Origin: Escherichia phage LH2
Sequence record: OQ378934.1
Strand: one strand, 5' to 3'
DNA length: 64,000 nt
Shown here: positions 6,974 through 32,750 of the stretch, in pieces
How the letters are laid out: every line of letters starts with the position of its first letter
Numbering within the stretch: position 1 is the first letter of the stretch
Translations under genes and position numbers: made by a program
Notes under the pieces: generated by a model
The model's database searches: none
What the model saw: the letters and a program-made list of their open reading frames with translations, nothing else
What the model was told of the DNA's origin: nothing

Positions 6974-7056
6974 TTTTAATAAAGCTTCTGTTCATAAAGA
7001 TAAGAAGAAAGCGTTTAAAGAATCTAATCGCAAACAGAAACATAAGGGGAAGGTCT

Positions 7057-7335
7057 ATGATTATTGATTCTCAATCTGTGGTTCAATATACAATCAAAAT
7101 TGACATTCTAGAAAAGCTATATAAGTTTCTACCAAATTTATACCACTCAATTGTCGATGAATTAGTTGAAGAACTACATCTTGAGAATAATGATTTCTTG
7201 GTTGGAACTTATAAAGATAACTCAAAGGCGGGATATTTTTACGTAATTCCAGCTCCAGGAAAAAGTATTGATGATGTATTAAAAACTATAATGATTTATG
7301 TCCATGATTACGAAATTGAAGATTATTTCGAATGA
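7057..7335 (+). CDS. arn: anti-restriction nuclease Arn
   Basis: 92-aa ORF (T4 Arn is 92 aa) at the syntenic position between motA and asiA. Confidence 0.75.
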   Translation: MIIDSQSVVQYTIKIDILEKLYKFLPNLYHSIVDELVEELHLENNDFLVGTYKDNSKAGYFYVIPAPGKSIDDVLKTIMIYVHDYEIEDYFE

Positions 7336-7496
7336 GTCATAATCTTGAAAAGGTAATCGAGCATAATGTAGCTCAGGAACGCGAGTCGTTCAAGGAATTC
7401 GTAGAAAAAATTTTTGAAGAAAATAACACAGACCAGTTTACAAATCAAGTGTCTGATGATATTATAATAAAGTCAACTAATTGAGTGGTATAGTTA

Positions 7497-7769
7497 ATGA
7501 ATAAAAACATTGATACAGTTCGTGAAATTATTACTGTTGCGTCTATTTTGATTAAATTTTCCAGAGAAGATATTGTTGAGAATCGTGCTAATTTTATCGC
7601 ATTTCTGAATGAGATTGGAGTAACGCATGAAGGTAGAAAGTTGAATCAGAATTCATTCCGTAAAATTGTTTCTGAATTAACTCAAGAAGATAAGAAAACC
7701 CTCATCGACGAATTCAACGAGGGTTTTGAGGGTGTATATCGATATCTAGAGATGTATACAAACAAATAA
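7497..7769 (+). CDS. asiA: anti-sigma70 factor AsiA
   Basis: 90-aa ORF (T4 AsiA is 90 aa) beginning MNKNIDTVREIITVASILIKFSREDIVENRANFIAFLNEIG; adjacent to t. Confidence 0.9.
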   Translation: MNKNIDTVREIITVASILIKFSREDIVENRANFIAFLNEIGVTHEGRKLNQNSFRKIVSELTQEDKKTLIDEFNEGFEGVYRYLEMYTNK

Positions 7770-8426
7770 TTATTTAGCCCGTCCTAATATTCTGGCCGCC
7801 TGAGAACATATTGATTCAAGGCGGTCATTACTTATATGATCATTTCTATACCAGTACATGGTTATTGTTCCAGCATAGATGTTATCCAAATTAAAATATG
7901 GACAACTGTACATGTAATTTATTTCGGGAGTAGGCTTTTTAGTTGGTAAAAAAGCAAATTTTGAATTGGAATAATAATGACGTCCATTTAAATGGACTGT
8001 ATATTCATCCATAGTTTTATCAACAGGATATCCTCCAAGTGATTTTTCACTTATTGTTGAAGGTAATTTTCCTTCATATGCTATAATATCAACAAAATAG
8101 TTTAAGTTTTTAGGGCGGAAAGAATACACCGCACTAAAGTCTGCCTCAGATGATATATGAACTATCTGGAGTTGTTCCAGGGCGACAGATTCAAAGCGTG
8201 CATTTCTTTCCTTTTCAATAATTTCACTGTATGTTTCATACTTTGATTGCTTATAGTACTCAAAGAAACTATCTCCCCTATACCAAACAATCGCCATTAT
8301 AAACAAAAGAATTACGACAGCTACCCGGGAAGCAAGAACTTTCCCGGTAGCGTTATCTTTGAACAAGCGATCTAGAACACCCAACAGAATATCAGAGGGC
8401 GAAAATGATATTCTAGGTGCTGCCAT
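7770..8426 (-). CDS. t: holin T
   Basis: 218-aa ORF (T4 holin is 218 aa) with one N-terminal transmembrane segment and a large periplasmic domain; convergent with asiA. Confidence 0.9.
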   Translation of the reverse strand: MAAPRISFSPSDILLGVLDRLFKDNATGKVLASRVAVVILLFIMAIVWYRGDSFFEYYKQSKYETYSEIIEKERNARFESVALEQLQIVHISSEADFSAVYSFRPKNLNYFVDIIAYEGKLPSTISEKSLGGYPVDKTMDEYTVHLNGRHYYSNSKFAFLPTKKPTPEINYMYSCPYFNLDNIYAGTITMYWYRNDHISNDRLESICSQAARILGRAK

Positions 8427-8456
8427 AGACCCTCCTTTTAAGGATATTTATTCAAA

Positions 8457-9248
8457 TTATACTCTTGCACCATATATTGTACCAACTTTAGTCCAAGTTG
8501 GAGCATTACCAGTAACAGCTTTACCCGCAGCACCACCCGAGTGAACAGTTCCTCCAGTACCGCCTTGAATATACGAAGACTTGCCAGCAGCTCCCAAATC
8601 TCCACCATTTCCTCCATAGTGAACCCCAGAAACAGTGCCTTTACCAGGAGCAGAAATTGTACCAGCAGATGCTGCCGACGCGCCGCCACCTGCTGCACCC
8701 GCTGCACCAAATGGACGACCTCCGCCGCCACCAAATATCATATCCATTTGAGGGAAAGGATGGTATCTAGCACCAGCGCCACCACCACCACCACCACCGA
8801 TAATACCATTATTGTTTATTCTTAAACGAGTTCCAATTCCGTTATTTATTGCAGTTCCTCCTGCTCCACCAGCAGAGTTACTTCCGCCATTTCCTCCTCG
8901 ACCTAATACATGAACCCCGCTATTAATATTTAAGGTAACGTATGCATTAGTTAATGAGCTAGGAAAATCTAAGCATGGAACACCAGTAGATTGAGAAACA
9001 ATATTTCCTGTAATAGTAACAACAACAGGAGTACTACCTTGAGATTTGAGATAATTTATTAGCGTGTCTTTATTATAAGAATTGCTAGCACCAATACTGT
9101 AATATACTTCTTTAGATTGTCCAGCCATTGAGCTCATCCAACCGGGAACTGAAACACGAACTGCTTTCATTGCAGCGTCCATCCAACGTTGTCCAGTTTC
9201 ATTCACGGCAGATTCACCAATCCAGCCAGGAACACCTACAATTGCCAT
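8457..9248 (-). CDS. 38: long tail fibre distal adhesin gp38 (T2/T6-type, glycine-rich motifs)
   Basis: 263-aa ORF immediately downstream of gene 37; N-terminus MAIVGVPGWIGESAVNETGQRW and multiple poly-Gly motifs (GGGGGGGAGA, GGGGGRPFGAAGAAGGG) separated by variable segments. Confidence 0.85.
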   Translation of the reverse strand: MAIVGVPGWIGESAVNETGQRWMDAAMKAVRVSVPGWMSSMAGQSKEVYYSIGASNSYNKDTLINYLKSQGSTPVVVTITGNIVSQSTGVPCLDFPSSLTNAYVTLNINSGVHVLGRGGNGGSNSAGGAGGTAINNGIGTRLRINNNGIIGGGGGGGAGARYHPFPQMDMIFGGGGGRPFGAAGAAGGGASAASAGTISAPGKGTVSGVHYGGNGGDLGAAGKSSYIQGGTGGTVHSGGAAGKAVTGNAPTWTKVGTIYGARV

Positions 9249-9259
9249 TAAAAATCCTT

Positions 9260-9277
9260 AGAGGGCCGAAGCCCTCT
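9260..9277 (-). other. intercistronic hairpin between genes 37 and 38
   Basis: Perfect GC-rich inverted repeat agagggccgaagccctct between the gene 37 stop and the gene 38 start. Confidence 0.5.
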
Positions 9278-9278
9278 T

Positions 9279-12200
9279 TTACATAAGTTTAGATTCAAGT
9301 TCTTTTACACGAGCAGAAAGTGTTTTCACAGCTTCAACCAGAAGAGCAATCTGGGCTTGAGAAGAAACAGTGAGTATTTTATTACCCTTGCTATCTTCTG
9401 TTTCACGGACAGCTTCTGGTAAAACGTCTTGTAACGTTTGAGCCACAATACCCGCTTCAGTTTCAATTGCCTCTCCACCGATGTATTCAGCTTTATCGTA
9501 AATGACACCGTTAAGTTTTTCAACTTTATCAAGTGCATTTTCGATAGGTTTAAAGTTGGATTTTAAACGAATATCAGAACGAATATAAACGTTTGGAGCA
9601 TTTATATTTTTATATGAGTACAAATCGCCGTTTTGGAAACGGAATACTTGTGCGCTGTTCGCATATATGTCTAATAATCCATCGCCATTTTGCTTAATAC
9701 CAGTATCGTTATCACCAAATGTTATACTATTTCCACCAAGTGCGTTTGATGTATTGACACCGAATGCTCTCGCAGATCCGCATGATAGTATAGGAGCATA
9801 AAATGTTCCATCCATATCAAAAGTCCAACGAGCCTGTTGCCCTGATGTACTGTCACCACGCATGCGAATAATGCCTTGACGCCAAGTACCAGAAACACCC
9901 AACCATCCAAATTCAAACGATTGTCGATAACCCGTGTCAGTTAAAAAACTGTATCCAGAAAATAGCGGGTAATAAGATTGACTTGTCTTGGAAATGCCGC
10001 CTGTATTCACTAAAAATGCAGAACGGTCACGAGTCACATCTGAAATATCAGAAAAGCCAACATTCCACTGTCCAGCAACTTTAACTCGTGAATTAATGTT
10101 TCCATTAATAGTAACATCTTTACCAAAAGAAGTATTTTCGTCAAGACGAACAGTACCAGCAGTCATATCAATTGAAAATGGTCGTTTTCCATTCCAACCA
10201 CCTTCTGTTGCTGTGTTATCGCCGTCTGAAGCGTTTTTGTCGGTCAGTAAAATATAGAAGGTTCCACCATCATTTCGAAATAAAGCAGAATTAGAACCTG
10301 ACCTATCAGAATTACTCGTAATACGAATACCGGTTTGGTTATTAATAGCAATTTCAGATTCTGCTACATAACGCTTAGGCCCGTTAGGCGTTTTTTGCAA
10401 GTTATTCAATATACTTGCAACTTGACCTTGAATTGCCGTCTCAGGAAGTTCAACTGCAGTTTCTGTGGCGCCGGATGAATCTGAAGCAAATATTTGATTA
10501 ACATTAGCGTTCGGTGTGGCATAATATGAAACAGCCAACGCCTGAGCGTATGTACCTACATTCACATAGATATCATAAACATCGCCTGATGTATTAACAG
10601 TGGCAACGTTTTTAATACCTTGAGCAACATCCAACGACCAAACAACAGCATTAATGCCTTTAGGATTGTTGTTAGAAGTTCTTAAAACAATTTGCGAAAT
10701 AACACACTGGTGAGGAGTGGAAACATTATACCCATTCCCGCCTGAAATTTCAAATTTAATAGTTGAGGTTGATTGCGGCATTGTCACCGTTGCTAATTTA
10801 TACCAGCCGCCAGTACCTGAATAAGAAACCATTCGGGTATTGACTTTACGGTCTAATGTCAAGTTCAAGTTAGCAAAGTTGGGTAATGAACCACCGGTGA
10901 TATTACCATCAGTGCCAAGAGTAGCAGCACCGGCAATAATTTTACCTGCCGCGCGGAAATCGCCTGTGCGACGGAATTCCCAACTCAAATCAGTGCCACC
11001 CGTACCGGTGCCTTGGCGGTAATGAACACGGAAATCTCCTTGAGAAATTAAGGTACCAATAGAATAAGTACTATCACCTTGTACGTAACGTTGTTTAACA
11101 ATAGGAATATATTCAGAAGGAGCAGTACGCTCTATATTCATATAAATCGGAGCTCTTACGTTTGCGTCATTCTGGGATGCAAATGAACCACACCCTGCTG
11201 GACGAATGCCGTCAGAAGCTTCAATATCTATATAAGCGTTTTGTCCTAATTGCATTCTAAAATTGGCATTAATGCGAGAGTTACTGTTTATTGTAGTTAA
11301 AGCATTATTTTGATCTACTATAAAAGAATCTCTTCCTAACCCAACCATGCCATCGTTTAATCCTATTCTCACAGGTCTCAAAGAGCTGTGAATGTCTCCG
11401 CTTTCGCCTTCATTTTGATTGGTTGGAATAATATAAAAGTTACCTTCCGAACGACGGAAAATAGCACCATATTCAGCGTTCCAAATTCTTAGTGCGTTTG
11501 CTGTTCCGCCAAATTTAGCTTGTCCATTTACAGACAATCCATTATTTGCAACTAAGCTTGATTCGGTTGTAATAGAACCAGAAGTAACAATATTACCTGA
11601 AGTTAATAAACCACCATTAACTCGGAGTTGAATAGGCCCGACAGTCGAACCAGGTGCAGGAGCTACGCGTTGAGAATAAAAATGGTAACCTTGCCCATCA
11701 GCTACTTCAAAAACGGTTTCACGATTACGATCACCAGATGCGTTAAATGAATTACCCCATGCTTTAACAGTTACATAACTCTTATTCTGGCCTGGTCGAG
11801 TACCGCCTTCCCACATGATTTGCTTAGTGCCGTCAATACCTGAAGCTGCTTTAAAAACTAGAGAAGCATTAGTTCCATCACCATTAAAATATAATCCATT
11901 ATTAAGTTTTAATGTTTGAACAGAAGCGATGGTACCATCAGCACGCAAACTTAATGTATTTGCTCCAGTTTTAATATCTAAAATTCCTGGTTCAACAATA
12001 AGTCCTTCGGCCATACTAACTGACATACGGCCCCGGCCACGGAAATAGTGATACATTTTAGAATTACTGTTATAACCGATATGAGTTTGCCCATCACCGT
12101 TATTATTGCCATCAGCATCGGTGCGTGCGGTAAACATTGCTTGGTTGTTATTTGGGAAATCCCAAGTAGAACCGGAATCTCGACTATAACCAACTGTCAA

Positions 12201-13289
12201 TTTCTTAGTGCTGTTAATACCGTTATTCAAAATGGTAGCAGTTGAAATACCGTTAGCCATCAGGTCATAAACGCCATCGCGAACCCATTTAATACCGGTA
12301 TCGTTATCGCCAATCGCAATACCAATAGAAATTGCAGAATCTAAAGGATAACGCCCATTTACACCATTATCAGGAAGACCTACTGAAATAGATTTACCTG
12401 CAGTAATACGACCAGAGGTATCAAAGGCCCACTGGAAAGACGAAGGTCCTACGCCGGTCCACCAAGAAATTTCTTGTGGCTTTCCCGAACGACAGTCAAC
12501 TATTTCATGGAAAATGCTAGAAGTATTTGAAGCTCGCATTTTACGCATATAGTTCAATCCGTTTGTATCACGGTCAGAACCATCTGCTGGTGGATTATAA
12601 ATCCAAGTAGGTAAAGAAACAATGTCATAACCCGCGTCATTATTCGGGATAAAGGTTTTAGAACTCAAGTTAATATTTTTAGTAACAACCTTTGGACCTG
12701 AAATATAACCGTTACGAGATTCTAAATTGCCGTAGGCCCATAGATTACCGGAACCAACAGCAAGGTCACCGGAATCAACCTGGAAATTACCATTACGATT
12801 AAAAGTCCAATATTTAGATTCACCTGCTTCACCAATGAAGTGAATTTTAAAACTGCCTTCGTTTACTAGTGTACCTGCTGAAAAAGTGCCGTCTTTATAA
12901 CGTTGCTTAATCAAAGGGTGGTATTCAGACACTGAGGTAGTTGAACTCAAATCTGTAAAGATAGGGGCCTTATTAAGATGTTGGTTAGCCCAGGCACCGT
13001 TACCGGCGGTCTTAGGTAAAAATTCAATATATTTACCGGCATAAACAAATTGGTTACCATTAAGATTAAATGTCCCGTTTTGTAAATAACTACCATTTTG
13101 AGTTACATTACCATTAATGTCCCCACCTTTAGCAAAACCAAGATCAATGATATTTCCTAAATCATCTTTAGTAAAAATTGTTCTATCTTTTAAGTTTATA
13201 GCCAATTCACCTTCGGCTAATACCGAAGCAGCAGGACGTGCACCTGCGGTTTTGCTTCTTTTAAATTGTATTTGTTTTAAAGTAGCCAT
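9279..13289 (-). CDS. 37: long tail fibre distal subunit gp37
   Basis: 1336-aa ORF starting MATLKQIQFKRSKTAGARPAASVLAEGELAINLKDRTIF (T4 gp37 N-terminus); longer than T4 gp37, as expected for gp38-adhesin-type phages. Confidence 0.9.
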   Translation of the reverse strand: MATLKQIQFKRSKTAGARPAASVLAEGELAINLKDRTIFTKDDLGNIIDLGFAKGGDINGNVTQNGSYLQNGTFNLNGNQFVYAGKYIEFLPKTAGNGAWANQHLNKAPIFTDLSSTTSVSEYHPLIKQRYKDGTFSAGTLVNEGSFKIHFIGEAGESKYWTFNRNGNFQVDSGDLAVGSGNLWAYGNLESRNGYISGPKVVTKNINLSSKTFIPNNDAGYDIVSLPTWIYNPPADGSDRDTNGLNYMRKMRASNTSSIFHEIVDCRSGKPQEISWWTGVGPSSFQWAFDTSGRITAGKSISVGLPDNGVNGRYPLDSAISIGIAIGDNDTGIKWVRDGVYDLMANGISTATILNNGINSTKKLTVGYSRDSGSTWDFPNNNQAMFTARTDADGNNNGDGQTHIGYNSNSKMYHYFRGRGRMSVSMAEGLIVEPGILDIKTGANTLSLRADGTIASVQTLKLNNGLYFNGDGTNASLVFKAASGIDGTKQIMWEGGTRPGQNKSYVTVKAWGNSFNASGDRNRETVFEVADGQGYHFYSQRVAPAPGSTVGPIQLRVNGGLLTSGNIVTSGSITTESSLVANNGLSVNGQAKFGGTANALRIWNAEYGAIFRRSEGNFYIIPTNQNEGESGDIHSSLRPVRIGLNDGMVGLGRDSFIVDQNNALTTINSNSRINANFRMQLGQNAYIDIEASDGIRPAGCGSFASQNDANVRAPIYMNIERTAPSEYIPIVKQRYVQGDSTYSIGTLISQGDFRVHYRQGTGTGGTDLSWEFRRTGDFRAAGKIIAGAATLGTDGNITGGSLPNFANLNLTLDRKVNTRMVSYSGTGGWYKLATVTMPQSTSTIKFEISGGNGYNVSTPHQCVISQIVLRTSNNNPKGINAVVWSLDVAQGIKNVATVNTSGDVYDIYVNVGTYAQALAVSYYATPNANVNQIFASDSSGATETAVELPETAIQGQVASILNNLQKTPNGPKRYVAESEIAINNQTGIRITSNSDRSGSNSALFRNDGGTFYILLTDKNASDGDNTATEGGWNGKRPFSIDMTAGTVRLDENTSFGKDVTINGNINSRVKVAGQWNVGFSDISDVTRDRSAFLVNTGGISKTSQSYYPLFSGYSFLTDTGYRQSFEFGWLGVSGTWRQGIIRMRGDSTSGQQARWTFDMDGTFYAPILSCGSARAFGVNTSNALGGNSITFGDNDTGIKQNGDGLLDIYANSAQVFRFQNGDLYSYKNINAPNVYIRSDIRLKSNFKPIENALDKVEKLNGVIYDKAEYIGGEAIETEAGIVAQTLQDVLPEAVRETEDSKGNKILTVSSQAQIALLVEAVKTLSARVKELESKLM

Positions 13290-13297
13290 AAGTCCTC

Positions 13298-13963
13298 TTA
13301 ATAATAGCCGAAATCTTGAACAGAATCCTTAATTACGATTTGGTCAAATCGTGGAACGTGTGAAGGTTGAGATGCGGGATTCTGCGAGAAAAAGTTTGGC
13401 GCGGTTAAATTACCTGTCATAGTGTCGCCAGAACGCAACACTCTAGAGTTCGCATTTGCTGTAACAGTATTTATTGCTCCATCAACATAGTCCTTTCTAG
13501 TAAGGTCATTTGCTGATACAGGAGAAACTGCATTACTTCTTATTTGACCTACTGCTGTCACAACGCCTTTTGTACTAATATCACCATTACGTGCATTAAT
13601 TACAACATTTCGTTCCGCTGAACCTTGTGATGATTTAAAACCAATACCATTCCACGAAACAATATCAATATTTGCTACAGCAAAAGTAGCATTATCACCG
13701 TTACCTGGATAAATACCACATTGGTTTGTGTTGTTTATAGCATACGGAACTTGTACGCCACCGTTAAATGTTACCTTTGATGCATAAGTACCACCATTAG
13801 CTTTAGAAACGAAATCGTTATCAGTTGCCTGTGGTTTATTATATTCTGAATATATTTTAAATGATTTATAGAGTACATCGTCACCGGCTGGATTCAATGG
13901 AAAATTTCCTTGATGCCAAATGACAGAGCCTCCGGATGTTGAACCTACTTTTAAATCAGCCAT
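13298..13963 (-). CDS. 36: long tail fibre hinge/distal connector gp36
   Basis: 221-aa ORF (T4 gp36 is 221 aa) between genes 35 and 37. Confidence 0.9.
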   Translation of the reverse strand: MADLKVGSTSGGSVIWHQGNFPLNPAGDDVLYKSFKIYSEYNKPQATDNDFVSKANGGTYASKVTFNGGVQVPYAINNTNQCGIYPGNGDNATFAVANIDIVSWNGIGFKSSQGSAERNVVINARNGDISTKGVVTAVGQIRSNAVSPVSANDLTRKDYVDGAINTVTANANSRVLRSGDTMTGNLTAPNFFSQNPASQPSHVPRFDQIVIKDSVQDFGYY

Positions 13964-13986
13964 TGTATGCCCCTTTATTTTAATAG

Positions 13987-13994
13987 TATTTATA
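13987..13994 (-). promoter_or_regulatory. late promoter TATAAATA for gene 36
   Basis: Plus-strand tatttata is TATAAATA on the - strand, about 25 nt upstream of the gene 36 start; preceded by a hairpin at 14003-14020. Confidence 0.65.
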
Positions 13995-14002
13995 AAGAAA
14001 AA

Positions 14003-23393: not shown

Positions 23394-24186
<793 letters not shown>

Positions 24187-24187
<1 letters not shown>

Positions 24188-24738
24188 TGAAACAATACCA
24201 ATTTTTAATTAAAGATATCCTGGAAAACGGTTATGAAACCGATGACCGAACAGGCACAGGAACAATTGCTTTGTTCGGTACTAAATTACGCTGGGATTTA
24301 ACTAAAGGTTTTCCTGCAGTAACGACTAAGAAGCTTGCCTGGAAAGCTTGCATTGCTGAGCTCCTTTGGTTTTTATCAGGAAGCACAAATGTTAATGATT
24401 TACGATTAATTCAACACGATTCATTAATTCAAGGCAAAACAGTCTGGGATGAAAATTACGAAAATCAAGCAAAAGATTTAGGATATCATAGCGGTGAACT
24501 TGGTCCAATTTATGGAAAACAGTGGCGTGATTTTGGCGGTGTAGACCAAATTGTAGAAGTTGTTGATCGTATTAAAAAACTGCCAAATGATAGACGTCAA
24601 ATTGTTTCAGCATGGAATCCGGCAGAACTCAAGCAGATGGCATTGCCACCTTGTCATATGTTCTATCAGTTTAATGTGCGTAATGGCTATTTGGATTTGC
24701 AGTGGTATCAACGATCAGTAGATGTTTTCTTGGGTTAA
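24187..24738 (+). CDS. td: thymidylate synthase, exon 1
   Basis: MKQYQFLIKDILENGYETDDRTGTGTIALFG… through …QRSVDVFLG, ending at the canonical td intron 5' splice site (exon ends ...TTGGGT); the listed ORF begins 12 nt upstream at a TTG. Confidence 0.95.
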
Positions 24739-25751
24739 TTTAGGCCTGAGTATAAGGTGACTTATACTTGTAATCTATCTAAACGGGGAACCTCTCTAGT
24801 AGACAATCCCGTGCTAAATTGTAGGACTACCCTTTAATAAATACTTCTATATTTAAAGAGGTATTTATGAAAAGTGGAATTTATCAGATTAAAAATACTT
24901 TAAACAATAAAGTATATGTAGGAAGTGCTAAAGATTTTGAAAAGAGATGGAAGAGGCATTTTAAAGACTTAGAAAAAGGATGCCATTCTTCTATAAAACT
25001 TCAAAGGTCTTTTAACAAACACGGTAATGTGTTTGAATGCTCTATTTTGGAAGAAATTCCATATGAGAAAGATTTGATTATTGAACGAGAAAATTTTTGG
25101 ATTAAAGAGCTTAATTCTAAAATTAATGGATACAATATTGCTGATGCAACGTTTGGTGATACATATTCTGTACATCCATTAAAAGAAGAAATTATTAAGA
25201 AACGCTCTGAAACTGTTAAAGTTAAGATGCTTAAGCTTGGCTCTGATGGTCGGAAAGCTCTTTACGGTAAACCCGGAAGCAAAAATGGGCGTTGGAATCC
25301 AGAAACCCATAAGTTTTGTGAATGTGGGGTTCGTATACAAACTTCTGCTTATACTTGTAGTAAATGCAGAAATCGTTCAGGTGAAAATAATTCATTCTTT
25401 AATCATAAGCATTCAGACAAAACTAAATCTAAAATATCAGAAAAAATGAAAGGTAAAAAGCCTAATAATATTAAAAAGATTTCATGTGATGGGATTATTT
25501 TTGAATGTGCAGCTGATGCAGCTAGATATTTTGAAATTTCATCCGGATTAGTTACTTACCGTGTAAAATCTGATAAGTGGAATTGGTTCTACATAAATGC
25601 CTAACGACTATCCCTTTAGGGAGTAGGGTCAAGTGACTCGAAACGATAGACAACTTGCTTTAGCAAGTTGGAGATATAGTCTGCTCTGCATGGTGACATG
25701 CAGCTGGATATAATTCCGGGATAAGATTAACGACCTTATCTGAACATAATG
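24739..25751 (+). mobile_element. td group I self-splicing intron (1013 nt) carrying the I-TevI gene
   Basis: Intron 5' sequence taatttaggcctgagtataaggtgacttatacttgtaatctatctaaacgggg and 3' end ...ctgaacataatG match the T4 td intron; the exon 1 and exon 2 reading frames join across it. Confidence 0.9.
24867..25604 (+). CDS. intron-encoded GIY-YIG homing endonuclease I-TevI
   Basis: 245-aa [38 protein letters not shown]… with GIY-YIG catalytic domain, zinc finger and C-terminal HTH; length and sequence match I-TevI. Confidence 0.95.
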   Translation: MKSGIYQIKNTLNNKVYVGSAKDFEKRWKRHFKDLEKGCHSSIKLQRSFNKHGNVFECSILEEIPYEKDLIIERENFWIKELNSKINGYNIADATFGDTYSVHPLKEEIIKKRSETVKVKMLKLGSDGRKALYGKPGSKNGRWNPETHKFCECGVRIQTSAYTCSKCRNRSGENNSFFNHKHSDKTKSKISEKMKGKKPNNIKKISCDGIIFECAADAARYFEISSGLVTYRVKSDKWNWFYINA

Positions 25752-26074: not shown

Positions 26075-26332
26075 TTGAGAGGATATATGATTTTACGATT
26101 TAAGGATACTTCTGGTGTCGTTCTTTTTACACTTCCTAATCCAAGTGAACTGGAAGTTCCAGGGCCAGAACAGCCTATTATCATTTATGGCAAAAAATAT
26201 TATACTCATAAAATGACTCGTGAGTATTTTGATAATAAAATTTCTACAGTTAAAACTTCTTCTGATTGTTATTATGATATTACTGTTTTAACGGAAAAAC
26301 AATATGACGAATGCAGAACTTTAGCAGTATAA
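26075..26332 (+). CDS. hypothetical protein (85 aa)
   Basis: ORF with gagagga RBS between td and nrdA; its last 12 nt overlap the convergent GIY-YIG gene. Confidence 0.5.
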
Positions 26333-27052
26333 ATATGATTCCCAGCAATCTAGAGCGCATCTTTTAGATATAAGTTTTCTGCTTATTCCGGTTTGACGCA
26401 CAGCTTCTGCTATTGTTGGATATTCTACCCCATCTATACTTACTCTTAGATGGGGTTTCTTTTTACCTCTTTGCGAGTCAGAAATTCGTTTTCTAACTTC
26501 ATTGGTATGTGTCTGTCCATAATATGGGTTATTGATGCCTTTCATATTAAGTGCAGCGTTTCTTTCTTGGAACTTTTTGCTTATTTCTATAGCACGATCT
26601 AACCCATAGTGTTCTTCTATAGTTTTACCTTTGATATCTCTAGGTCTACCATGTTTTTGCTTAAGTTCTTCTGGTGATAATTTTGAATTATTATTTTTAA
26701 TTGCATTTGAAATTTTATTAAGGATTTCTTTCTTTCTTGGGTGATGAGATAAGGTATCCCCAAACGATGCGTCTGCTATATTATACCCATTTTCCTTTGA
26801 GTCATATTCATGCATCCAATAATTTTCACGTTCAATAATGATAGATTTTTCGTATGGAAGTTCTTCTATGATTTTACATACGAAAGCATCTTTCCCATGC
26901 TTATTATAAGAACGCTGCAGCTTTATTGAATGATGATTTCCATTATCTAAATCTTTAAAGTGTCGTTTCCATCGTTCTTCAAAATTAATTGCACTTCCTA
27001 TATAGTGCTTATTGGTTTTAGTGTTTATAATAGCATATATTCCAGATTTCAT
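26321..27052 (-). CDS. free-standing GIY-YIG homing endonuclease (I-TevI-like, seg-type)
   Basis: 243-aa [38 protein letters not shown]… whose N-terminal ~95 aa closely parallel I-TevI; C-terminus has NUMOD3-like ([20 protein letters not shown]) and NUMOD1-like HTH ([24 protein letters not shown]) motifs. Confidence 0.85.
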
Positions 27053-29388: not shown

Positions 29389-30981
29389 ATGTGGTTAACT
29401 AAGAATAACGCTATGTTTGATAATATATACAAAAACGGAAAGTTTCTTCCATTTGGAGAAGAAAAACTTAAATCTAGACTAACAGAAGAAGATAAAGCTC
29501 TTCTAACTGATGGAATAGATTTTAAGCTCAATGTGTTCCAAATTATGGAAGGCATTGACATTAACGATCTAAAATGTGCAGTTTGTGGAAATTTCATTTC
29601 TCTGAAAACAGCAAAGAAACGTGTATTTCCAGCAACATGTAGTAAATCCTGCGCAGGGATATTTTTCGCGGATAAGAGAATTCAAAGCCGTGATACAAAT
29701 TTTGGCGGAAAAGAAAAATATAAAAAATATTTGTCTGAACTTCAACACAAAAATTCTTTAGAAAAATATGGAACAACTCATCAAAAAATTTCAAGAAATA
29801 AAAATAGAAAAACTTTAATTGAACGATATGGGGTAACGCATAATTCACAATTAGAAAGTGTGAAAGAAGCGAGAAAAGTTATAGAAAACGGTAAATCAGT
29901 TGATATTCTGCATTCTAGAAAATCTCGCGAAAAATCTAAGAAGACTAAATTAAATTGGACTAAAGAATATAAGGCATCGTTATATTCATCTATAGGAAAA
30001 TCTATTAAAAATAACGGTCATATTAATCATGATATACTAGATAAAATCAATTACAAAATTTCTATAGAAGAACTACAACAATTAGCAAATTGTTCTCGGA
30101 TGACGGCTTATAGAGCTCTTTCATCCAAAGGACTAATTGACGTTCATTATACTCAAAGTTCTATAGAGCAGTTCATTTTAGATCTAGGATTTGATTGCGT
30201 AGAAACTAGAAAAATTATTCCTCCGTATGAATTAGATATTTACATTCCTGAGAAAAAATTGGCTATAGAATACGATGGAATTTATTGGCATTCTAGCGGG
30301 TCAAAGGAAACAGATAAAATTAAAGAAACTTATCATTTGATGAAGACAGAGATGTGTGAAGCACAAGGAATTCAATTACTTCACATCTTCGAAAATGAAT
30401 GGATTGATGATACAAAAAGAGAGATCTGGAAATCCATTATAAAGCATAAATTAGGATTATCAGAAAGAATACCAGCCCGAAAATGCAAAGCACGGTTTGT
30501 TAATAAGGATGAGGCAAAAGAATTTATTAATAAGAATCATCTTCAAGGATTTTGCTCAGGAGCTCATACGTATAAAGGACTTTATTACAATAATGAGTTA
30601 GTTCAAATTATTTCTATCGGTAAATCTAGATATAGCTCAGGTGATGAACTTTTAAGGATGTGTTCAAAATTAGGGGTTTGTGTTGTAGGAGGAGCCTCAA
30701 AATTATTAAAAGGAATTAATTGTCTATCTTATGGCAATCGAAGATGGTGCAGTACATTATCAAATGTTTATGACTCTGTCATGGAATTTAGTCATATCTC
30801 TGAGCCATGTTATTGGTACGTCGATAAAGGAGAGGTATTTCACCGCTCAAGCTATATGAAACATAAGCTTAAAAACAAGCTTAAAAATTATGATGATACA
30901 ATAACTGAAGTAGAAAATTGTTATGCAAATGGTCTTAGAAGAATCTGGGACTGTGGAAATTTAGTTTACAGGACAAAATAA
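29389..30981 (+). CDS. putative free-standing homing endonuclease with Vsr-like PD-(D/E)xK nuclease motif (530 aa)
   Basis: Large AT-rich ORF filling the nrdA-nrdB gap; N-terminal Cys cluster (CAVCGNF…CSKSC), internal KYGTTH/RYGVTH repeats, and a central motif ELDIYIPEKKLAIEYDGIYWHS resembling the Vsr/DUF559 FxDGxxWH endonuclease signature. Confidence 0.55.
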   Translation: MWLTKNNAMFDNIYKNGKFLPFGEEKLKSRLTEEDKALLTDGIDFKLNVFQIMEGIDINDLKCAVCGNFISLKTAKKRVFPATCSKSCAGIFFADKRIQSRDTNFGGKEKYKKYLSELQHKNSLEKYGTTHQKISRNKNRKTLIERYGVTHNSQLESVKEARKVIENGKSVDILHSRKSREKSKKTKLNWTKEYKASLYSSIGKSIKNNGHINHDILDKINYKISIEELQQLANCSRMTAYRALSSKGLIDVHYTQSSIEQFILDLGFDCVETRKIIPPYELDIYIPEKKLAIEYDGIYWHSSGSKETDKIKETYHLMKTEMCEAQGIQLLHIFENEWIDDTKREIWKSIIKHKLGLSERIPARKCKARFVNKDEAKEFINKNHLQGFCSGAHTYKGLYYNNELVQIISIGKSRYSSGDELLRMCSKLGVCVVGGASKLLKGINCLSYGNRRWCSTLSNVYDSVMEFSHISEPCYWYVDKGEVFHRSSYMKHKLKNKLKNYDDTITEVENCYANGLRRIWDCGNLVYRTK

Positions 30982-31656
30982 TGAGTACAGTTTTTAATAC
31001 TAAACAGGTCGATGTTTTAAAAGAACCTATGTTTTTTGGTTCAGGTCTTGGTATTGCGCGTTATGATATTCAACGGCATCGAGTATTTGAAGAACTTATT
31101 GAACGTTCGCTCTCGTTTTTCTGGCGTCCGGAAGAAGTAAACTTGATGATGGATGCTGCACAGTTTAATAAGCTTCCTCAGTATCAACAAAATATTTTTA
31201 CTAATAATCTGAAGTATCAATCATTACTTGATAGTATTCAAGGTCGTGCGCCGTCTGCTGTACTTATGCCATTGCTTTCAGACCCAAGCCTTGATACATG
31301 GGTTGCTACATGGACTTTTAGTGAAACTATTCACAGTCGTTCATATACTCATATCATGCGAAATCTTTATACTGATCCGTCAAAGGTATTTGATGAGATT
31401 GTATTAGATGAAGCTATTATGAAACGCGCTGAATCCATTGGGCGTTATTATGATGATGTTCTGATTAAAACCCGTGAATGGGAAAATGCTAAAGAATTTG
31501 TAGAACTAGCTAAAGAATCTCCTGATGCCGACTTTCGTTTAAACCGAGCTATTAAACAAGAAGCCGAAGCTAAACGTGCTTTAATGAAATCTCTTTATCT
31601 CTGTTTGCACGTTATTAATGCCTTAGAAGCTATTCGTTTTTATGTATCTTTTGCGT
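30981..31656 (+). CDS. nrdB: ribonucleotide reductase small subunit NrdB, exon 1
   Basis: MSTVFNTKQVDVLKEPMFFGSGLGIARYD… to …EAIRFYVSFA; the frame is interrupted by a stop that is removed once the intron is excised. Confidence 0.9.
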
Positions 31657-32247
31657 AAAATGCGCCTTTAAACGGTAACGTTTATCGAAAACTCCTTTAA
31701 TTGCTGGAAAGTCCTTTATAGGAAAACTAGCAGCCAAGGTTTTGCTTGCACCTTTAATTAGTATAATATGATTATACTTTTAAGAGGATGCACAATTGAA
31801 CTATAGAAAAATTTGGATAGATGCTAACGGACCTACCTAAAGATTCTGATGGAAGACCATAAGAAAAGAACATCAGCAAAAACATTAGAAATGGTTAAGA
31901 ATGGGACCCATCCTGCACAAAAAGAAATCACATGTGATTTCTGCGGTCACATTGGTAAAGGTCCTGGATTTTATCTAAAACATAATGACAGATGTAAATT
32001 AAATCCAAATAGAATTCAATTGAATTGTCCATATTGTGATAAGAAAGATTTATCACCATCAACATATAAACGATGGCACGGCGACAATTGCAAAACAAGG
32101 TTCAACGACTAGTCTTCGGACGTAGGGTCAAGCGACTCGAAATGGGGAGAATCCCTCCGGGATTGTGATATAGTCTGGACTGCATGGTAACATGCAGCAG
32201 TTCATAAGAGAACGGGTTGAGAATTAGCGAGCTCAATCGAACATACG
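31657..32247 (+). mobile_element. nrdB group I intron (591 nt) with decayed homing endonuclease ORF
   Basis: Exon 1 ends in T and the intron ends in G (…acatacG|gtacc…), restoring codon TGT and the conserved NrdB junction FAC-TFNFH; size is close to the T4 nrdB intron. Confidence 0.8.
31849..32112 (+). pseudogene. I-TevIII-like endonuclease remnant (87-aa zinc-finger C-terminal fragment)
   Basis: Intron-internal ORF with CxxC…CxxC zinc-finger (CDFCGH…CPYCDKKD) but no HNH catalytic domain; consistent with a deleted I-TevIII. Confidence 0.55.
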
Positions 32248-32750
32248 GTACCTTTAACTTCCACAAAAACATGGAAATCATGGAAGGTAATGCCAAGATT
32301 ATGAAGTTCATTGCTCGTGATGAGCAGCTTCACCTTAAAGGCACTCAATATATTATTCGTCAACTTCAATCCGGTACTGATGGCGATGAATGGGTTAAAA
32401 TTGCTCAAGAGTGTGAACAAGAAGCAGTTGATATTTTCATGGAAGTTAACCGCCAAGAAAAAGATTGGGCAGTTCATTTATTTAAAGATGGCGATGTTCC
32501 TGGATTAAATACAAATAGCATGTGGAGCTTTATTGATTACTTAACTGTATCTCGTATGAAACAGTGTGGTCTTCCATGTCCAATTACCGATGCTCCGGTT
32601 AAACATCCATATCCTTGGATTCGTGAATATCTTAATTCTGATAATGTTCAATCCGCGCCACAAGAAGTAGAACTTTCATCTTACCTTGTAGCACAGATTG
32701 ATAATGATGTTGATGATAAAGTTATGATGAGTTTTAAAAAATATTTTTAA
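32248..32750 (+). CDS. nrdB: ribonucleotide reductase small subunit NrdB, exon 2
   Basis: …TFNFHKNMEIMEGNAKIMKFIARDEQLHLKGTQ… in frame with exon 1 after splicing (392 aa total). Confidence 0.9.

Follow-up and report, generated by a model that had tools for sequence, protein, structure and literature searches.

The gene that lies between the distal tail-fibre gene 37 and the holin gene t in Escherichia phage LH2 raises two linked questions: whether its product, gp38, is a short assembly chaperone of the T4 type or a receptor-binding adhesin of the T2/T6 type, and, in the latter case, which receptor on the host surface it recognizes. We addressed both in a stretch of 64,000 nucleotides from the LH2 sequence record OQ378934.1 (the window), a segment of Tequatrovirus type in which the genes follow their usual order. 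A sequence-only reading had placed a 263-aa gp38 at 8457-9248, and these coordinates proved exact; the strand, which that reading did not state, is minus. Gene 38 is an intact frame of that length running from ATG to stop, with the stop codon at 8457-8459. According to the open reading frames and their Pfam matches, with which the PHROGs calls concur for all four genes, the order on the minus strand is 36, 37, 38 and t, and gene 38 has gene 37 as its immediate upstream neighbour and t as its downstream one, the slot that is characteristic of the family.

13298..13963, minus strand: gene 36, a 221-aa open reading frame for the long-tail-fibre distal hinge connector (Pfam Phage_T4_gp36, 5.2e-38)
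9279..13289, minus strand: gene 37, the 1336-aa distal long-tail-fibre subunit, a recombination mosaic (open reading frame; PHROG 1699; exact match to WJJ57167.1)
8457..9248, minus strand: gene 38, encoding gp38, the probable tail-fibre adhesin (open reading frame; Pfam GP38 and Gp38_N; PDB 6F45_D; exact match to WJJ57166.1)
7770..8426, minus strand: gene t, the holin gene, a 218-aa open reading frame immediately downstream of gene 38 (Pfam Phage_holin_T, 8.4e-118)

Both fibre proteins have exact, full-length matches in GenBank under Escherichia phage LH2, gp38 as WJJ57166.1, annotated "receptor recognizing protein", and gp37 as WJJ57167.1, annotated "tail fibers protein". The exact gp38 protein is therefore already deposited under a correct name, and the gene is of a known type, neither novel nor surprising. 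A literature search for phage LH2 returned no describing paper, only mentions of LH2 as a genome comparator, and Rfam and tRNA scans of the window gave no matches. At 90% identity LH2 gp38 falls into a cluster with 81 members, among them slur07, Kha5h, KIT06, TadeuszReichstein, AV109, AV114 and AV115. The DNA of gene 38 is 98.1% identical to that of KIT06 and 92.8-97.6% identical to 26 other records among those listed. When residues 116-263 were used alone as a tblastn query, 37 records were returned with only query residues 47-148 covered, a partial coverage probably caused by the low-complexity filter, which was on, acting on a glycine-rich query. About 37 phage records carry this gp38 allele with at least 93% identity. 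In three members of the 90% cluster (P0006, P0007 and P0010), one from phage Brandy and two from E. coli assemblies, an almost unchanged specificity domain is fused to an N-terminal attachment domain of a clearly different kind, a natural module exchange within gp38; the two whose records bear the label Escherichia coli are probably phage sequence within bacterial assemblies.

We took scores above the gathering cut-offs of both GP38 and Gp38_N as the mark of membership in the adhesin family. LH2 gp38 matched GP38 (PF05268) at 1.1e-68 and 231.8 bits, with profile positions 1-218 of 218 covered, and Gp38_N (PF21721) at 7.3e-18 and 64.7 bits over aa 1-42; because each score lies far above its cut-off of 25, a chance open reading frame is excluded. 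The protein also matched PHROG 2056 ('tail fiber protein; host specificity') at 1.3e-100. Two solved structures align with it over most of its length, namely gp38 of Salmonella phage S16 (PDB 6F45_D, gp38 residues 8-261, E 1.4e-49) and the receptor-binding domain of PP01 gp38 (PDB 9V85_A, gp38 residues 39-263, E 7e-32), and PP01 gp38 shares the architecture of S16 gp38 (PMC12892980). In S16 the gp37 trimer is capped by a single gp38 monomer, whose three conserved tryptophans insert into pockets of the trimer, and ten glycine-rich stretches build a polyglycine-II sandwich in which the hypervariable segments form the distal loops (PMC6851490). Residues W9, W22 and W37 of LH2 gp38 align with these three docking tryptophans. 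Homology to 6F45_D and 9V85_A suggests that LH2 gp38 adopts the same three-domain fold with a polyglycine-II sandwich; a single-sequence AlphaFold2 model of the protein had a mean pLDDT of 32.7.

The layout of the chain agrees with this assignment. Glycine makes up 34% of residues 116-263, as against 9.6% of residues 1-115, and the glycine-rich part divides into five conserved motifs rich in glycine (GRM1-5) separated by four variable segments (HVS1-4), terms that follow the definition of conserved glycine-rich motifs and hypervariable segments in the gp38 specificity domain (PMC3157838). The segments, from the N-terminus to the C-terminus, are as follows.

9114..9248, minus strand: N-terminal attachment domain (aa 1-45; W9, W22, W37), placed by Gp38_N and the S16 alignment; 96% identical to T2 and 67% to T6
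8904..9113, minus strand: aa 46-115, first part of the central beta-helix domain, aligned to the beta-helix region of S16 gp38; 59% identical to T2 and 33% to T6
8883..8903, minus strand: GRM1, GRGGNGG (aa 116-122); 100% identical to T6 and 86% to T2
8799..8882, minus strand: HVS1 (aa 123-150); 68-69% identical to T6 and T2, and 100% to KIT06, Bas43, AV114 and AV115
8778..8798, minus strand: GRM2, GGGGGGG (aa 151-157), from the motif map and segment comparison
8733..8777, minus strand: HVS2, AGARYHPFPQMDMIF (aa 158-172); 53% identical to T6 (PFPQM shared), 7% to T2 and 100% to the four Tsx-dependent relatives
8706..8732, minus strand: GRM3, GGGGGRPFG (aa 173-181); 100% identical to T2 and T6
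8616..8705, minus strand: HVS3 (aa 182-211), which holds S191; 43% identical to T6 and 16% to T2
8601..8615, minus strand: GRM4, GGNGG (aa 212-216), from the motif map and segment comparison
8538..8600, minus strand: HVS4 (aa 217-237); 29% identical to T6, 19% to T2 and 100% to KIT06, AV114 and AV115
8523..8537, minus strand: GRM5, GGAAG (aa 238-242), from the motif map and segment comparison
8460..8522, minus strand: conserved C-terminal segment of gp38 (aa 243-263); 67-76% identical to T6 and T2

Compared segment by segment, GRM1-5 are 80-100% identical to their counterparts in T2 and T6, as against only 7-53% for HVS2-4, which bears out the description of gp38 as poly-glycine motifs alternating with variable segments.

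The variable segments in turn point to a receptor. Aligning them with gp38 proteins of known receptor, a check that the sequence-only reading had proposed, placed LH2 closest to the Tsx-dependent alleles of KIT06, Bas43, AV114 and AV115 and, for HVS2 and HVS3, closer to T6 than to T2. Over the full protein the identity of LH2 gp38 is 99.2% to KIT06 and 97.0% to each of Bas43, AV114 and AV115, and within residues 116-263 only two or three of the 148 positions differ from these four: S191A and A261S for AV114 and AV115, A185K and S191A for KIT06, and S191A, Q228K and A261S for Bas43. Of these phages, KIT06 fails to infect a tsx deletion mutant and also infects a btuB-defective strain more weakly (PMC11274021), for Bas43 the table of the BASEL collection gives Tsx as primary receptor (PMC8594841, supplementary file 5), and AV114 and AV115 were shown to recognize Tsx (PMC10844046). 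HVS2 and HVS3 resemble those of the Tsx-binding T6 (53% and 43%) more than those of the FadL-binding T2 (7% and 16%); the attachment domain is T2-like, at 96%. Related gp38 variants recognize the same receptor (PMC12032242), and exchanging gp38 moves receptor specificity (PMC3157838; bioRxiv 10.64898/2026.04.02.716166), with a swap of the distal half of gp38 moving porin specificity (bioRxiv 10.64898/2026.04.02.716166). That gp38 determines which receptor is used is supported by published studies of nearly identical alleles. Taken together, the near-identity to Tsx-dependent alleles, the T6-like HVS2 and HVS3, and the published variant and swap experiments lead us to predict, on sequence grounds, that the receptor of LH2 gp38 is Tsx. 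Given the weaker infection of a btuB-defective strain by KIT06, Tsx may not be the sole surface factor.

One residue of the specificity domain sets LH2 apart. S191, in HVS3, is the only one unique to LH2, all 12 of the other cluster members that cover position 191 carrying Ala, and it is one ground for a reading in which the same fibre-tip adhesin uses another or an additional receptor, such as OmpA, OmpF, OmpW or FadL, owing either to S191 or to the gp37 context. Precedents for such changes exist: a single HVS3 substitution, Q206L in RB68, switches the receptor from OmpF to OmpW (bioRxiv 10.64898/2026.04.02.716166), and a few changes in HVS2 and HVS3 widen the adhesin of a PST phage from Tsx to OmpA (PMC3157838). 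However, the exchange of Ala for Ser is conservative and falls within the low-complexity stretch GGGA(S/A)AASAG, HVS1, HVS2 and HVS4 do not differ from their counterparts in the Tsx-dependent KIT06, AV114 and AV115, and the four Tsx-dependent relatives vary at positions 185, 228 and 261 with Tsx dependence kept. We consider a different or additional receptor unlikely. The narrower proposal that S191 may by itself shift the adhesin to another Tsx variant or to a porin, as a natural one-residue switch in a Tsx-type lineage, is very doubtful, precisely because the change is conservative and lies in that stretch.

With Tsx as the predicted receptor, the partner protein bears on how gp38 would be displayed. 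The 1336 aa that the sequence-only reading gave for gp37 match the minus-strand frame, and the protein is of the S16/T2 kind, in which a tip is followed by a C-terminal chaperone domain and the needle of T4 is absent; the cleavage between the two parts is predicted.

9579..9749, minus strand: distal tip of gp37 (aa 1181-1237), the predicted gp38 docking site left after the predicted cleavage, from the alignment to S16 6F45_A
9282..9578, minus strand: C-terminal intramolecular chaperone domain of gp37 (aa 1238-1336, 99 aa), from Peptidase_S74 and SDIRLK at S1238

Pfam Peptidase_S74 matched aa 1238-1295 of gp37 at 2.4e-15, Gp34_trimer-like repeats were also found, and the tip fragment of S16 gp37 (6F45_A) can be aligned with residues 1181-1334. 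All six adhesin-type comparator gp37 proteins carry the SD.RLK motif, located 99 aa from the end in T2, KIT06, Bas43, AV114 and AV115 and 113 aa from it in T6. We infer that gp37 cleaves itself before S1238 (YIR/SDIRLK), which would yield a mature gp37 of 1237 aa with gp38 seated on the newly exposed tip. Homology to T4 gp37 extends only over aa 1-823, at 48% identity, with no alignment beyond, and a search of gp37 for the receptor-binding needle of T4 found neither HxH motifs nor a PDB match to the T4 gp37 needle or tip.

An identity profile describes gp37 as a mosaic whose successive blocks are closest to AV114/AV115, to KIT06, to T2/Bas43 and then again to T2, and aa 1201-1336, which comprise the end of the tip and the chaperone domain, are 98-100% identical to T2 gp37. 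For aa 800-1000 (positions 10290-10892) no DNA match above 85% was found in the phage collection, and the 7-kb stretch surrounding genes 36 to t (7000-14000) is covered to at most 77% by any one record. The sequence-only reading had called gp37 correspondingly long; this fails as a general rule, as the adhesin-type gp38 of T6 is paired with a gp37 of 994 aa, and on that count we rejected the idea that gp37 length tracks the type of adhesin. Close relatives with the same gp38 allele have gp37 proteins of 1257-1312 aa.

The make-up of gp37 also weighs on a reading in which gp38 is, as in T4, purely an assembly factor for gp37 that stays outside the virion and leaves receptor binding to the gp37 tip. 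BLASTP of LH2 gp38 against T4 gp38 (183 aa) detected no similarity (best E = 12), gp37 has neither needle similarity nor HxH motifs of the T4 kind and brings its own chaperone domain, and gp38 matches the virion-bound S16 gp38 over its full length, including the three docking tryptophans. We regard this reading, which nothing in the sequence favours, as highly improbable. PHROG 1121 (181 positions), which gp38 residues 1-87 match, was considered as a sign of N-terminal kinship to T4 gp38 and was dropped in view of the direct BLASTP result of E = 12; the old idea of a gp38-like sequence inside T4 gp37 likewise produced nothing significant (best E = 0.9). The T2/T6-type adhesin that the sequence-only reading favoured over a T4-type chaperone is thus upheld by Pfam, by PHROG 2056, by the S16 and PP01 alignments, by the lack of similarity to T4 gp38 and by a gp37 of matching type, and gp38 is probably present in the LH2 virion.

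Further features lie upstream of gene 36 and in the spacer between genes 37 and 38.

13987..13994, minus strand: TATAAATA, a T4-type late-promoter motif 24 nt upstream of gene 36, from a motif search
9260..9277, minus strand: hairpin between genes 37 and 38, with a 7-bp stem and a UUCG loop, from the sequence (-13.4 kcal/mol, z-score -1.8)
9255-9259, minus strand: ribosome-binding site of gene 38, AAGGA, just after the hairpin, from the sequence

The 30-nt spacer with its hairpin is identical in T2, KIT06, AV114 and AV115, and Bas43 shows a single-base difference at the bottom of the stem. In T4 and T6 a hairpin occupies the corresponding position, built from different stem sequences. Gene 38 has no copy of TATAAATA immediately ahead of it. 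Across the window the motif is no commoner than chance predicts, with 11 copies found against 9.25 expected, and only its positions before genes 36 and 34 are suggestive; going by position alone, the copy before gene 36 is likely the start of a transcript that spans genes 36, 37 and 38. That gene 38 is a decayed or non-functional copy is hardly conceivable, since the frame is unbroken from end to end, every motif is kept, the gene has a ribosome-binding site and the sequence belongs to a phage genome that has been deposited.

The literature on S16, T2 and T6 suggests how the adhesin may be assembled and used. Genes 36, 37 and 38 would be expressed late and together, and gp37 would trimerise with the aid of its own 99-aa C-terminal chaperone domain, which would then cleave itself off before S1238. 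A gp38 monomer would dock on the exposed tip of the gp37 trimer by its N-terminal domain, via W9, W22 and W37, its glycine-rich motifs would pack as a polyglycine-II sandwich, and the loops of HVS1-4 would be displayed at the far end of the fibre. There the HVS loops would bind Tsx, the nucleoside channel of the E. coli outer membrane, in a reversible first contact that would precede binding of the short tail fibres to the LPS core.

Elsewhere in the window we observed interrupted genes and homing endonuclease genes. The thymidylate synthase gene is interrupted (24175-25604, plus strand): the opening portion stops at 24738, and a 245-aa frame for an I-TevI homing endonuclease (24867-25604, plus strand) comes next, an arrangement that indicates the td group I intron, for which Rfam gave no match at its gathering threshold. 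A second GIY-YIG homing endonuclease gene, of 243 aa and with an I-TevI-like DNA-binding region, lies between td and nrdA on the opposite strand (26321-27052, minus strand). Between nrdA and nrdB lies a 530-aa homing endonuclease gene, Hef (29389-30981, plus strand). Only 16 phage records, among them the hef entry of phage U5, match it at 99% identity or more, a sporadic spread typical of a mobile endonuclease gene. The nrdB gene itself appears as two open reading frames (30981-31658 and 32217-32750, plus strand) with about 560 bases between them, consistent with the nrdB group I intron, for which Rfam likewise gave no match.

Collectively, we hold it very probable that LH2 gp38 is a T2/S16-type receptor-binding adhesin of Tequatrovirus that works by the proposed route of assembly and Tsx binding. 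We likewise uphold gp38 as the main host-specificity determinant in the window. As a piece of routine annotation, the analysis identifies the receptor-binding protein of LH2 and predicts Tsx as its primary receptor, which is of use in choosing phages for cocktails and in anticipating resistance by loss of tsx. The family, the structure, the allele group and its receptor had already been published, and nothing is added here to the biology of gp38 adhesins.

Among known systems, LH2 contrasts with T4, where a 183-aa assembly chaperone with no detectable similarity to LH2 gp38 occupies the same slot between genes 37 and t, and where the needle of gp37, which has no match in LH2 gp37, binds the receptor. 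The S16 gp38 with its gp37 tip (6F45) and the PP01 gp38 (9V85) are homologous to the LH2 proteins and have in common with them the docking tryptophans, the glycine-rich motifs and a gp37 in which the tip is followed by the chaperone; both bind OmpC and differ from LH2 in their variable loops and receptor, and the LH2 fold is predicted by homology. T2 gp38 (262 aa) belongs to the same family, has an attachment domain 96% identical to that of LH2 and a gp37 of similar size (1341 versus 1336 aa), but its HVS2, HVS3 and HVS4 are only 7%, 16% and 19% identical, and a receptor different from its own, FadL, is expected for LH2. The nearest systems are KIT06, Bas43, AV114 and AV115, whose gp38 is likewise 263 aa long, lies between genes 37 and t and is identical to LH2 in HVS1 and HVS2; HVS4 is that of KIT06, AV114 and AV115, whereas Bas43 differs. 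All four have A191 in place of S191, and the gp37 proteins they pair with have other lengths (1257-1312 aa) and other mosaic patterns. T6 gp38 has the same family and motif layout, has PFPQM of HVS2 and GTIS-PG-G-V-G of HVS3 in common with LH2, and its receptor, Tsx, is probably also that of LH2; yet it is only 54% identical overall and 67% identical in the attachment domain, and its gp37 has 994 aa. Because of this low identity and the other attachment domain and gp37, the LH2 allele represents a second, separate lineage of Tsx-binding gp38, one that had already been noted (PMC10844046, PMC12032242).
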